From the IMG/VR virus record IMGVR_UViG_2534682158_000014: a stretch of DNA of 38,748 bases; one strand, written 5' to 3'. This document shows, piece by piece, positions 2,364 to 36,969 of the stretch. The translations under genes and the position numbers were made by a program. The stretch is from a virus. Lineage: Duplodnaviria; Heunggongvirae; Uroviricota; Caudoviricetes. The notes under the pieces were generated by a model. It had not been told where the DNA came from, ran no database searches, and worked only from the letters and a program-made list of their open reading frames with translations. Numbering within the stretch: position 1 is the first letter of the stretch; the number at the start of each line of letters is the position of its first letter.

Positions 2364-2629
2364 AAAAAGGACGGTACCAGCCGGAAGCAAGGGTACAAAC
2401 TGGTACCGCCAGGACTACACACAGCATAAAGTTGTGGTGCCGGGTGCCTCCCGGTGCCTGGCGAAGGTTGCACACCAGGCGGGTGGGTATCCACAGAAGG
2501 TCGACTGTCAGCCTCAACCTTAACCCGCGTGCGCTGAGCCGCATTCACCACAACGCTAAGGATTCTCTCTGGTTGAAAATACTTAGCTGTTATGTGCCTG
2601 CTTTTAGCCACATCAGGCGAGGTGGACCT

Positions 2630-2679
2630 GGTTATTCCCCAACAACAAGGATTCGGTTAATCTGGTTATCCCCAACAAC
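2630..2679 (+). repeat. Two direct repeats of a 16-17-nt motif upstream of the 2695 ORF
   Basis: 'ggttattccccaacaac' (2630-2646) and 'ggttatccccaacaac' (2664-2679), 34 nt apart, end 16 nt before the ATG at 2695. Candidate regulator-binding or RNA motif. Confidence 0.55.
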
Positions 2680-2694
2680 GCAAAAGGAAAAGAA

Positions 2695-3129
2695 ATGTCC
2701 GGTAATATCTATACGCTGTACAAATCCCACTGTGAAAATGTTGGAAAGTATCGGGGCATTGAAATCAGTGGGGTAGTGTCATCAGTCGAAATAAGCAAAG
2801 TTGAATCAAGGGCAACATTACTTACTCTTCTGGACCTTGTCTTAAATGAGCACCGGAAGAAATTCGGCACACCCTATAATCAGTTGAATGGGAAAAAGGC
2901 TCTGGTTCACCTTATTCTGATGAAGCATCACTGGATGCCAAAACAGATTAATGAGATGAAATTTGATGAACTTCTTCTTTCAATTCAGGATGAACTCACG
3001 CTTGATAAAATAAGTGTAACCGCCCAGAAATTTTTAGATTATCGAGACTGGAGATCACAAATTCATCACTTTGATGATTTTGACGAAAATGAATGGGATC
3101 CTAATTTGTCTGCACAATATCTAAAGTAA
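2695..3129 (+). CDS. Hypothetical protein, 144 aa, AT-rich accessory gene
   Basis: ATG preceded by 'aaaaggaaaag'. AT-rich codon usage unlike the flanking phage genes. Orientation opposes the leftward early operon and it converges on the 3101..3307 ORF. No domain recognised. Confidence 0.5.
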   Translation: MSGNIYTLYKSHCENVGKYRGIEISGVVSSVEISKVESRATLLTLLDLVLNEHRKKFGTPYNQLNGKKALVHLILMKHHWMPKQINEMKFDELLLSIQDELTLDKISVTAQKFLDYRDWRSQIHHFDDFDENEWDPNLSAQYLK

Positions 3130-3307
3130 CATCCTGTGATAAAACCGTGATTTCCTGATCCAGTTTTTTTAAGGAGTCTATTGTTTCCTGTCGATAAGAC
3201 AGCACTTCACGAAGCTGGTTTATAGCTGCCAGCTTCTTTGTCATCCACTCATAAATTTCCTCATCTGTGTAGCCAGGCGCGACGATTTTTTGTTCTGTTT
3301 TGTGCAT
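3101..3307 (-). CDS. Small hypothetical protein, 68 aa, first gene of the leftward early transcript
   Basis: Internal Met start 'MHKTEQKIVAPGY' is preceded by 'GAGGAGG' with 7-nt spacing. It lies just downstream (leftward) of the OL-like operators. Predicted helical; function unknown. Confidence 0.45.
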   Translation of the reverse strand: MHKTEQKIVAPGYTDEEIYEWMTKKLAAINQLREVLSYRQETIDSLKKLDQEITVLSQDVTLDIVQTN

Positions 3308-3361
3308 TTCACACCTCCTCAAGTTATCAGTTACTTGTTGATGGGGACCAGATTGTTAAAG

Positions 3362-3390
3362 AGCGAAGCGTCCTATAGGGCGCTTTTTTT
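3362..3390 (+). terminator. Intrinsic terminator on the + strand
   Basis: Hairpin 'aagcgtcc-tata-gggcgctt' followed by 'ttttttt'. Likely stops rightward transcripts from the 2695 ORF before the immunity region. Confidence 0.6.
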
Positions 3391-3563
3391 GTTGCTAACG
3401 AATCATCCGGTCATTCATACGCCACCGGCGGCTACTTCGTGGGCGTCCTGCCTGTTCGTTTTTGACATTTACTGACCTCTTACGACACATGCACCGTGCA
3501 CCGTGTTGCAACCAGATTTTGTTGTAATCCTGTAGTTGGTCTGGAACAAAAGATAAAATTAAA

Positions 3564-3600
3564 TTGCGAGATATGCAAGTAATATTTGCGAAATATGCAA
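3564..3600. promoter_or_regulatory. OL-like operator pair, motif TTGCG-N6-GCAA
   Basis: 'ttgcgagatatgcaa' (3564-3578) and 'ttgcgaaatatgcaa' (3586-3600). The same half-site pattern recurs in the cI–cro intergenic region. Confidence 0.55.
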
Positions 3601-4367: not shown

Positions 4368-4430
4368 TTGCGTGATAAGCAAATCAACTTGCGCAAAATA
4401 ATTGCGTGAAATAACATGCATAACGCGCAA
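4368..4430. promoter_or_regulatory. OR-like operator cluster and divergent promoters between repressor and cro-like gene
   Basis: 'ttgcgtgataagcaa' (4368-4382) plus overlapping 'ttgcg...cgcaa' dyads through 4430 ('ttgcgcaaaataattgcgtgaaataacatgcataacgcgcaa'). Confidence 0.55.
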
Positions 4431-5593: not shown

Positions 5594-6535
5594 ATGAGCA
5601 CTAAATTAACCGGCTATGTATGGGATGGTTGCGCTGCGTCAGGCATGAAGTTATCCAGCGTGGCAATTATGGCCCGCCTGGCTGATTTCAGTAATGACGA
5701 AGGTGTGTGCTGGCCATCAATTGAAACCATTGCCCGCCAGATTGGCGCGGGGATGAGTACCGTCAGAACGGCTATCGCACGACTGGAAGCAGAAGGCTGG
5801 TTAACGCGTAAGGCGCGTCGCCAGGGTAACCGCAATGCGTCGAATGTTTATCAGCTTAACGTTGCGAAGCTTCAGGCAGCGGCATTTTCTCAACTGTCAG
5901 ATTCTGACCCGTCAAAATCTGACGCATCAAAATCTGACCCGTCAAAATTTGATGCGTCGAAATCTGGCAAAAAAGCGGGTTTTCACCCGTCAGAATCTGG
6001 CGGGGATCCGTCAGTAAAATCAAAACATGATCCGTCAGATAAAAAACCTTCTCGTCCGGACGCTTCGCAACCGGACACGCAGACGGCTGAACAGAATTTT
6101 TTAACTCGCCATCCTGATGCGGTTGTATTCAGCCCTAAAAAGCGCCAGTGGGGAACGCAGGATGATTTGACCTGCGCACAGTGGCTCTGGAAAAAAATCA
6201 TCGCCCTGTACGAGCAGGCCGCCGAATTTGACGGCGAGGCGGTACGTCCGAAAGAACCGAACTGGACAGCCTGGGCAAATGAAATTCGCCTGATGTGTGT
6301 ACAGGACGGTCGTACCCACAAACAAATCTGCGAGATGTACAACCGTGTCAGCCGCGACCCGTTCTGGTGCCGTAACGTGCTCAGCCCGTCGAAGCTGCGG
6401 GAAAAATGGGATGAACTTTCCCTGCGCTTATCGCCGTCCGTCAGCACGTACACAGAAAAACGCGAAGACCCGTACTTCAAAGCCAGTTACGACAATGTGG
6501 ACTACAGCCAGATCCCGGCAGGATTCAGGGGGTGA
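5594..6535 (+). CDS. Replication initiator (lambda O-like architecture: N-terminal winged-helix, repeat linker, C-terminal domain)
   Basis: N-terminal 'LSSVAIMARLADFSNDEGVCWPSIETIARQIGAGMSTVRTAIARLEAEGWL' is typical of phage replication-initiator HTH domains. Tandem DNA repeats lie inside the gene, encoding 'SDPSKSDASKSDPSKFDASKS'. Confidence 0.7.
   Translation: MSTKLTGYVWDGCAASGMKLSSVAIMARLADFSNDEGVCWPSIETIARQIGAGMSTVRTAIARLEAEGWLTRKARRQGNRNASNVYQLNVAKLQAAAFSQLSDSDPSKSDASKSDPSKFDASKSGKKAGFHPSESGGDPSVKSKHDPSDKKPSRPDASQPDTQTAEQNFLTRHPDAVVFSPKKRQWGTQDDLTCAQWLWKKIIALYEQAAEFDGEAVRPKEPNWTAWANEIRLMCVQDGRTHKQICEMYNRVSRDPFWCRNVLSPSKLREKWDELSLRLSPSVSTYTEKREDPYFKASYDNVDYSQIPAGFRG
5897..6046. repeat. 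Tandem ~15-bp iteron-like repeats inside the initiator gene (candidate ori)
   Basis: 'ccgtcaaaatctgac' / 'gcatcaaaatctgac' / 'ccgtcaaaatttgat' / 'gcgtcgaaatctgg' / 'ccgtcagaatctgg', and further 'ccgtcag...' copies to about 6046. Confidence 0.6.
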
Positions 6536-36412: not shown

Positions 36413-36771
36413 TTCGCATCCCTAAAGACAATGAACTTTGAATAGACGAAACCGCACACCAGGCTGATGGCGGAGAAGGTGACAAGAGTTATCATCGGGG
36501 GAAGTGCGCATCTATCAGCAGCCCATCCAACAGTAGCACTGAGTGTTCCCATGAACCCGACATATAACATGTAGCGCATCGTTGTAGTTGATGCTTTGAA
36601 TGTGAATTTTGCATTCGCGAAGAAGCTAAAACTCACAGCCACAACGAAACCTGCGAAGTTTGCCAGAGCCTGATTGGTATGCGCGGCATAGATACATACA
36701 CCAAAAACCACCCAGTGTATAAGTGTGTTCAGCACACCAATCGAGGTGTACCTTGCAAATATATTTAACAT
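36409..36771 (-). CDS. gtrA: GtrA flippase (small four-TM protein)
   Basis: 120 aa hydrophobic protein immediately upstream of, and overlapping, gtrB. Confidence 0.8.
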
Positions 36772-36969
36772 TTATTTAATCAATGAGTTCTGAAAGGTAT
36801 GAAGTCTATCATCCAAGTCTCAATCGATCGATACTTGCGGTAGTTGATGAGGAAAACTCTGGTACACAAAGCTTTGCACTGGACTGCAAGGTGTTGTGCT
36901 TCTCTGGAGTGCGATATGTTTGATGACAAAAAATTAGCGCAAGAGGACAAAAAATCACCTTGCGCTAAT

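Follow-up and report, generated by a model that had tools for sequence, protein, structure and literature searches.

A swappable convergent gene pair, orf144 and orf68, beside the immunity region of a lambdoid Escherichia coli prophage, and its relation to known prophage accessory systems

Among the described systems with a bearing on what follows, the sieB-esc-sas genes of phages P22 and lambda, and rexAB of lambda, are expressed by the lysogen, lie in or beside the pL operon near the immunity region and are read against it, with pL giving antisense RNA. In an excludon the long 3' untranslated region of one gene is fully antisense to an oppositely regulated neighbour. Morons are defined by having their own promoter and terminator and a deviant GC content (PMC3594210). 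The subject here is a pair of tail-to-tail genes, orf144 and orf68, in a 38,748-nucleotide (nt) stretch of virus DNA (IMG/VR record IMGVR_UViG_2534682158_000014), hereafter the window, which covers the immunity region of a lambdoid E. coli prophage and has a 100% identical counterpart locus in strain M7424. An original prediction, made by a model from the letters and a list of open reading frames (ORFs), had pointed to the larger gene as an AT-rich orphan converging on the first gene of the leftward early operon.

The cassette that carries the pair is best read as a prophage moron, an element of an ordinary kind; the family of orf144, ECs1072, is likewise one that was already catalogued and named, but is uncharacterised. 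New are the conserved convergent pairing with a gene of the YdfC/Sb50-like type and a predicted fold with no known neighbour. The reading favoured here, and one that we regard as reasonably probable, is that of a lysogen-expressed, two-gene convergent moron, insulated by a terminator from the immunity region and overrun from pL on induction. It builds on the anatomy of the locus, the family membership, the cassette boundaries, the conservation of the pairing, the strand specificity of a hairpin and the expression of a homologue in lysogens, to which it would add a promoter, interference, a link between the two proteins and a biological role. The parts of the cassette are as follows (aa, amino acids).

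2626-3396, both strands: swappable accessory cassette of 0.77 kb, holding the repeats, candidate promoter, orf144, orf68, boxA and + strand terminator
2628-2679, + strand: two direct repeats CTGGTTAT(T)CCCCAACAAC, 34 nt apart, with an AAGGA motif after each
2635-2640 and 2658-2663, + strand: candidate sigma-70 promoter of orf144 inside the repeats (TTCCCC, 17 nt, TAATCT)
2695-3129, + strand: orf144, ATG start, ECs1072-family phage-associated protein of 144 aa
3101-3129, both strands: dual-coding, tail-to-tail 3' overlap of orf144 and orf68, 29 nt
3101-3307, - strand: orf68, small acidic YdfC/Sb50-like coiled-coil protein, 68 aa from ATG or 73 aa from an upstream TTG
3211-3236, + strand: perfect 9-bp hairpin inside orf68, terminator-like with a weak U tail
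3335-3354, - strand: inverted third copy of the repeat, AATCTGGTCCCCATCAACAA, in the orf68 5' leader, 20 nt, 75% complementary to 2659-2678
3353-3365, - strand: boxA, exact consensus CGCTCTTTAACAA, ~45 nt ahead of the orf68 start codon within the leftward leader
3365-3390, + strand: intrinsic terminator, stem 3365-3386 of nine pairs (five G-C), then seven T through 3390

Both reading frames and their overlap are present as originally described, and the AT-richness is borne out, GC being 0.37-0.40 over 2700-3300, which takes in both ORFs, against 0.53-0.57 directly to the left. The view that the 144-aa protein has no recognisable family has, in contrast, to be given up. It scores 156.2 bits against NCBIfam NF033230 (the ECs1072 family, cutoff 70) over residues 4-144 of 144, and matches PHROG 5286 (phrog_5286) over its full length at 4.2e-90. 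The Sakai ECs1072 locus itself (now ECs_5703) matches the family profile at 4.6e-16, unlike the outcome of pairwise BLASTP, in which orf144 and ECs_5703 gave no match. The gene is carried by 422 of 5426 complete E. coli genomes, and also by phages SfIV, Kati, 689R6 and 569R4.

When 1.84 billion representative proteins were searched with a profile, 74 clusters of orf144 relatives emerged, 45 of them at E <= 1e-10 and nearly all 145-155 aa long. Conserved in a 45-sequence alignment are R39/A40, L50, R54, the stretch L64-x-G66-x-x-A69-L-x-H72, and W80, with W134, inside an E-W-x-P motif, being invariant. With this alignment AlphaFold2 gave an all-alpha model with a mean predicted local distance difference test score (pLDDT) of 93.8 and a predicted template modelling score (pTM) of 0.88; a deep alignment is needed, as from three sequences the model was unusable (pLDDT 41.6). 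The structure prediction and Foldseek comparison that had been proposed as a check thus provides a confident model, for which no structural neighbour was found in PDB (best E 1.0) or BFVD (best E 0.66). None of 45 ECs1072-family members matches the PADLOC 2.0 defence models, and neither does orf68.

When orf144 is set against its 72%-identical allele in Escherichia albertii (locus L006; such handles denote the loci compared), the ratio of nonsynonymous to synonymous divergence (dN/dS) is ~0.26. On account of this ratio, the 74 clusters of relatives and the pLDDT, orf144 is to be taken as a real gene and more than a chance frame; with a grand average of hydropathy (GRAVY) of -0.47, its product is a predicted soluble, cytoplasmic all-alpha protein. 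Comparison of the window with the E. albertii locus (2695-3307 against 699-1312) gives flanks that are 94-100% identical, while the orf144 coding sequence (CDS) is only 60-90% identical, with dS ~0.65, and the divergence is confined to that CDS. This pattern indicates a gene-sized allele swap.

Nor is orf144 an orphan in its company, since it is linked to the small convergent ORF in a conserved pair. orf68 is the first gene downstream of pL; it matches phrog_1744 and, by tblastn, annotated YdfC genes at 38-39% identity over 97% of the query (E 4e-8 to 7e-8), and no Pfam model. A hidden Markov model (HMM) built from four partners found a YdfC-like ORF, convergent and overlapping at its 3' end, next to the family members of seven lineages (the window, L006, L007, L010, L011/L026, L028/L029 and L030). 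The overlap in homologous pairs is 35 nt in L010, 32 in L011, 56 in L028, 95 in both L030 and L007, and 71 in phage ST64B. The pairing persists even where identity of the large protein has fallen to 28-29%, and the homologues of orf144 and orf68 diverge in parallel, to 32-43% identity. Sb50 of ST64B and the partner in L016/L017 are distant YdfC-like homologues (hhalign probability 92.9%, E 3.6e-7). As the pair occurs in two prophage hotspots, one pL-proximal and the other between Q and holin, position alone is no explanation for the pairing. On this comparative evidence orf68 is not a bystander but a conserved partner of orf144 within one cassette, and the two proteins probably act together. 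In E. albertii a T-run of orf68 has a 1-nt frameshift, with orf144 intact there. Of the phage records found only via ydfC, none matched the ECs1072 family at E <= 1e-3; ydfC can therefore be present with no partner of this family.

Is orf144, for all its apparent misorientation, a familiar early gene that relatives read in the expected direction? All the relatives sampled in prophages speak otherwise, each being on the strand opposite to the flanking phage operon. L006, L007, L010 and L011 are counter-oriented and pL-proximal, L005 is so inside a leftward operon, and L014-L017 and ST64B are so in the Q-holin gap; in Sakai Sp4, ECs1072 (ECs_5703) is counter-oriented between cII-like and replication genes. 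The ST64B member, an ORF of 144 aa, lies between sb50 and the holin gene sb51 and converges on sb50 with the 71-nt overlap given above; the ORF is absent from the GenBank annotation.

L032 2345-2779, in AY055382 the complement of 36435-36869: ST64B family member

By coordinates and lengths, STMMW_20111 (holin), STMMW_20121 (435 nt) and STMMW_20131 (360 nt) of Salmonella Typhimurium D23580 are exactly these ST64B ORFs, and their expression is on record. STMMW_20121 is reported to have its own promoter, active in nearly all of 17 conditions, and to be transcribed antisense to lytic genes (Owen et al., PMC7067206); it reaches 60-269 transcripts per million (TPM) in 16 of the 17 against 0.3-33 TPM for the holin gene (Table S5, PMC7067206). 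Its partner STMMW_20131 is at 22-258 TPM, and BTP1 cI, in the same table, at 35-289 TPM (Table S5, PMC7067206). Sakai ECs1072 was detected on arrays of uninduced cultures (PMC2241611). There is in this way direct evidence that a homologous pair is expressed in lysogens.

The cassette has sharp edges. By blastn, the DNA that the window has in common with SfV and SfII runs as far as 2625 and begins again at 3397; SfII combines the same repressor and immunity region with different cargo, and Kati, 689R6 and SfIV have the same cargo with a different immunity region. It follows from these boundaries and the mixing of cargo and immunity that 2626-3396 travels as one unit. The flanks are found in 2893 genomes, only 422 of which have orf144. 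What is present or absent among near-identical phages, deviates in GC and has its own + strand terminator conforms to the moron pattern. The slot is filled in SfV, SfII and Aeromonas phage pAEv1818 by other gene pairs, their proteins unrelated to orf144, in each of which a counter-oriented ORF overlaps the 3' end of the first leftward gene. These replacements suggest that the slot is a general hotspot for convergent pairs.

L002 2965-3424 (SfV): replacement pair, overlap 83 nt
L003 2916-3275 (SfII): replacement pair, overlap 39 nt
L023 1345-1929 (pAEv1818): replacement pair, overlap 30 nt

Of the signals inside the cassette, the strong + strand terminator that had been placed before the OL-like operators is well founded, combining hairpin and T-run with strand-specific folding. 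As + strand RNA the hairpin at 3365-3390 has -14.6 kcal/mol; as - strand RNA it has -7.4 kcal/mol (z 0.1), no better than shuffles, and is weak because G.U pairs turn into A.C mismatches. It is kept in E. albertii L006, with compensatory stem changes. Terminator-like sites number eight in the 2.3-kb region, against 2.1 +/- 1.6 in shuffles. The hairpin inside orf68 (3211-3236) has -15.6 kcal/mol, z -4.56, with none of 200 shuffles as stable, and is kept in E. albertii; transcripts of orf144 may end early here, or RNase III may cut here. The original description is upheld in both respects: the accessory gene runs counter to the leftward early operon, and it has a + strand terminator of its own ahead of OL and pL.

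The motif CTGGT(TA)(T)CCCCA(A/T)CAAC occurs three times in the cassette, twice in the orf144 leader and once inverted in that of orf68, and may be a promoter, an operator or an RNA site. A related sequence precedes the 55%-identical homologue in L005. At the positions of the candidate hexamers the L005 DNA reads TTCCTC-17-TACTCT, so that key bases are kept, and the promoter of orf144 would lie in this repeat region. The region as RNA is no more stable than shuffles (z +1.38). The inverted copies at 2659-2678 and 3335-3354 were considered as the ends of an invertible segment and this was rejected, there being no recombinase nearby, the arms being 75% complementary and the relatives all having the same orientation. 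In the orf144 leader there are also ACAAGGAU and AAAAGGAA, 38 nt apart, that resemble CsrA sites, and in L007 a phage-encoded CsrA homologue (2-169, - strand) adjoins a 38%-identical ECs1072/YdfC-like pair at 273-882; a link of CsrA to the orf144 leader is speculation. The L005 homologue has its own perfect bidirectional hairpin at ~6488-6520, and downstream of it a GC-rich, apparently structured non-coding stretch (L005 6560-6900) without an Rfam match at E <= 0.01.

Two non-coding RNA regions flank the cassette, and the neighbouring immunity region supplies the promoter that reads into it.

2362-2584, - strand: STnc100/PasD-like small RNA (sRNA) region at the cassette's left flank, inside the leftward operon and common to SfV and SfII
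L006 365-587, L002 2662-2877 and L003 2612-2827: STnc100-like region in relatives
3397-3465, - strand: structured leader RNA of ~70 nt, directly downstream of pL, marking the cassette's right recombination boundary
3578-3550, - strand: pL-like promoter, -35 TTGCAT (3578-3573), 17 nt, -10 TATCTT (3555-3550)
3564-3578 and 3586-3600: OL operators, copies of TTGCGAnATATGCAA
3655-4347, - strand: cI-like S24/helix-turn-helix (HTH) repressor gene
4368-4382: OR operator, third copy of TTGCGAnATATGCAA
4445-4705, + strand: cro-like gene

The OL-like operators are thus found as had been supposed, and both overlap the pL-like promoter (3550-3600, - strand). Leftward of pL the order is orf68, orf144 on the opposite strand, the STnc100-like sRNA region, yfdP, yfdQ and an HD hydrolase gene. 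Away from this area, the replication gene at 5594-6535 has within it iteron-like direct repeats (5895-5969) made of TCTGAC-CCGTCAAAA units that encode an SDPSKSDASK repeat; they gave a spurious mir-5880 Rfam match and are probably the phage origin of replication.

The leader RNA recurs in 53 phage records from at least nine host genera, its phages being those of Escherichia, Shigella, Salmonella, Yersinia, Pectobacterium, Pantoea, Klebsiella, Providencia and Aeromonas, and in six of six phage loci examined it is just downstream of a cI-like gene. Of the cells in its three-helix structure 98.3% are paired, and nine of 13 pairs have changed on both sides; none of 500 shuffles reaches the observed pairing and slid controls stay below 50%, the covariation being strong in two helices. 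It has no match in Rfam 15. The structure is confined to the ~70-nt core, the - strand leader as a whole (3308-3545) folding no better than shuffles (z 0.65). Probably the leader is an antitermination or processivity RNA. As to the other flank, a test for toxicity of orf144 and its rescue by a structured region upstream had been proposed; the region at 2362-2584 is no candidate antitoxin for orf144, being on the opposite strand and matching STnc100/PasD, at 43.1 bits for Rfam RF02076 (gathering score 47) in the window, 46.2 in L006 and 39.5 in SfV and SfII. Part of it is covered by a PGAP 'frameshifted hypothetical protein', a CDS that is probably spurious. Bracketing the cassette as they do, the two conserved non-coding RNA regions probably act as recombination anchors.

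How might these parts work together? In the lysogen, pL would be shut by the cI-like repressor and orf144 transcribed from its own weak promoter in the repeats. Its transcript would cross orf68 in antisense and end at 3365-3390, possibly in part at the hairpin 3211-3236 already, with the terminator preventing collision with OL and pL and antisense reading into cI. On induction, the pL transcript would carry the structured leader 3397-3465 and boxA, pass the hairpin in its non-terminating orientation, express orf68 and overrun orf144 in antisense, lowering orf144 expression. Transcriptional interference between orf144 and pL, as originally supposed, is a plausible conjecture. The product of the pair would, we infer, benefit the lysogen by host modulation or by phage exclusion.

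Several observations pull the other way. Between pL and the pair, L010 has no + strand terminator and L011 and L007 have a weak one, so that such a terminator does not define the module. The candidate promoter of orf144 is weak (score 6.2, equalled by 228 sites in the window), and upstream of the gene no sigma-70 promoter passes a consensus scan. Searches of Pfam, PADLOC and PDB sequences with orf144 were without match and so give no functional hint. The expression evidence comes from homologues rather than from the window locus; in ST64B both partners are highly expressed together, with the small one not lytic-only, from which it follows that transcriptional interference cannot be absolute. 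Finally, L005, L027 and the chromosomal loci L008/L009 are family members with no recognisable partner.

What the pair is for admits of other answers. orf144 could be an anti-phage protein, acting by exclusion or abortive infection, with orf68 and the antisense pL RNA as an antidote that spares the phage's own lytic growth, in the manner of sieB-esc-sas or BstA-aba. A site beside the immunity region and counter-orientation are features of sieB, rexAB and bstA alike; both genes are always in the cassette, three unrelated convergent pairs fill the same slot in SfV, SfII and pAEv1818, and the divergence between the window and E. albertii is limited to the orf144 CDS. bstA and STMMW_20121 were flagged together (PMC7067206). 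The failure of all 45 family members to match PADLOC, the co-expression of the ST64B partner in lysogens and a dN/dS that bespeaks ordinary purifying selection nevertheless make defence with self-immunity an unlikely, if not a negligible, answer. A toxin-antitoxin (TA)-like arrangement, with one partner inhibiting growth and the other neutralising it through protein or through the complementary 3' RNA ends, and the prophage stabilised in consequence, would suit a small two-gene module of conserved linkage and 3' overlap, both partners of which are expressed in ST64B lysogens; several type I TA loci are laid out with a convergent 3' overlap. Yet the large protein stands alone in the chromosomal loci L008/L009, and no similarity to any TA family was seen. 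The Qin dicBF operon, when induced without dicF and dicB so as to leave ydfABC, is not toxic (PMC5069750), and because of this and of the frameshifted small ORF beside an intact orf144 in E. albertii we consider a TA role improbable. A type III system of the ToxIN kind was rejected: there are only two imperfect repeats, their fold is no more stable than shuffles (z +1.38), the structured region is on the opposite strand and neither PADLOC nor Pfam gives a match.

The signals in the pL leader have also to be weighed from the other strand. The hairpin and boxA might constitute a nutL-type antitermination site on the - strand, in which case orf144 would be without a dedicated terminator; boxA, the sole exact match to CGCTCTTTAACAA in 38.7 kb, is directly 3' of the hairpin on that strand and within the pL leader. 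The hairpin, however, precedes boxA rather than following it, and it is on the + strand that it is strong and has seven T, its - strand form being the one at -7.4 kcal/mol with z 0.1. Searches found no boxB, N protein or second nut site to go with boxA, and no second boxA or nut site downstream of pR; an arginine-rich motif is missing from orf68, nothing N-like is encoded there, and the equivalent position in SfV and SfII is without boxA. A nutL-type site is thus quite improbable. It is barely credible that orf144 should be no true gene, or should be one of the ordinary early lytic genes and merely seem misoriented: its lack of a consensus promoter, and the doubtful frameshifted PGAP CDS nearby, are set against 74 diverged clusters with conserved residues, a dN/dS of ~0.26, a pLDDT of 93.8, transcription of a homologue in lysogens while its lytic neighbours are silent, and counter-orientation in all contexts sampled. 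A bolder version of the lysogen-expressed moron, to which we give little credence, would have the pair as an undescribed two-component prophage system with an unseen all-alpha fold, a lysogen-expressed exclusion or host-control module coupled by its convergent, overlapping layout to the lysis-lysogeny switch, and as one example of a general class of convergent pairs behind a put-like pL leader in phages of the SfV, ST64B and ZF40 types.

About 8% of complete E. coli genomes carry orf144, with relatives in the Shigella serotype-converting phage SfIV and in Salmonella ST64B, the ST64B homologue being expressed at a level comparable to that of a prophage repressor. As a self-contained conserved pair, orf144 and orf68 are a concrete two-gene unit for tests of exclusion, toxicity or host modulation. 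The leader RNA, for its part, may explain how its phages, lacking an N-like gene at this position, read through early terminators.

It remains to set the locus beside the known systems. To sieB and rexAB, orf144 is alike in position and counter-orientation, without similarity of sequence or fold, and SieB is a membrane protein whereas orf144 is soluble by its GRAVY of -0.47. To excludon-type convergent loci the likeness of orf144/orf68 is in the proposed antisense layout. The leader resembles the HK022 put RNAs (PMC9378689) in its size of ~70 nt, its multiple helices and its position just downstream of pL, and shares with them the put-like trait of occurring in phages without an N-like gene at that position; it aligns poorly with putL and putR, and only one copy of it was found. 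orf68, like YdfC of the Qin dicBF operon in K-12, is a promoter-proximal small gene of a repressor-controlled leftward operon, and each is followed by a long sRNA-containing stretch, with DicF in the one and the STnc100-like RNA in the other (PMC5069750). With STMMW_20121/STMMW_20131 of ST64B (the latter being Sb50) the pair shares its family (144 aa, tblastn E 6e-6, with the A3 profile) and the same convergent overlap, the differences being that the ST64B pair is in the Q-holin gap rather than adjacent to pL and that its partner is 119 aa and not under pL. With the lambdoid morons, a concept of Juhala and Hendrix (PMC3594210), the cassette has in common that it is an optional block of deviant GC with its own terminator and, as judged from its homologue, expression in the repressed prophage; its promoter is only a candidate, and what sets it apart from them is that it is a convergent unit of two genes, one of which is wired to the early lytic promoter.

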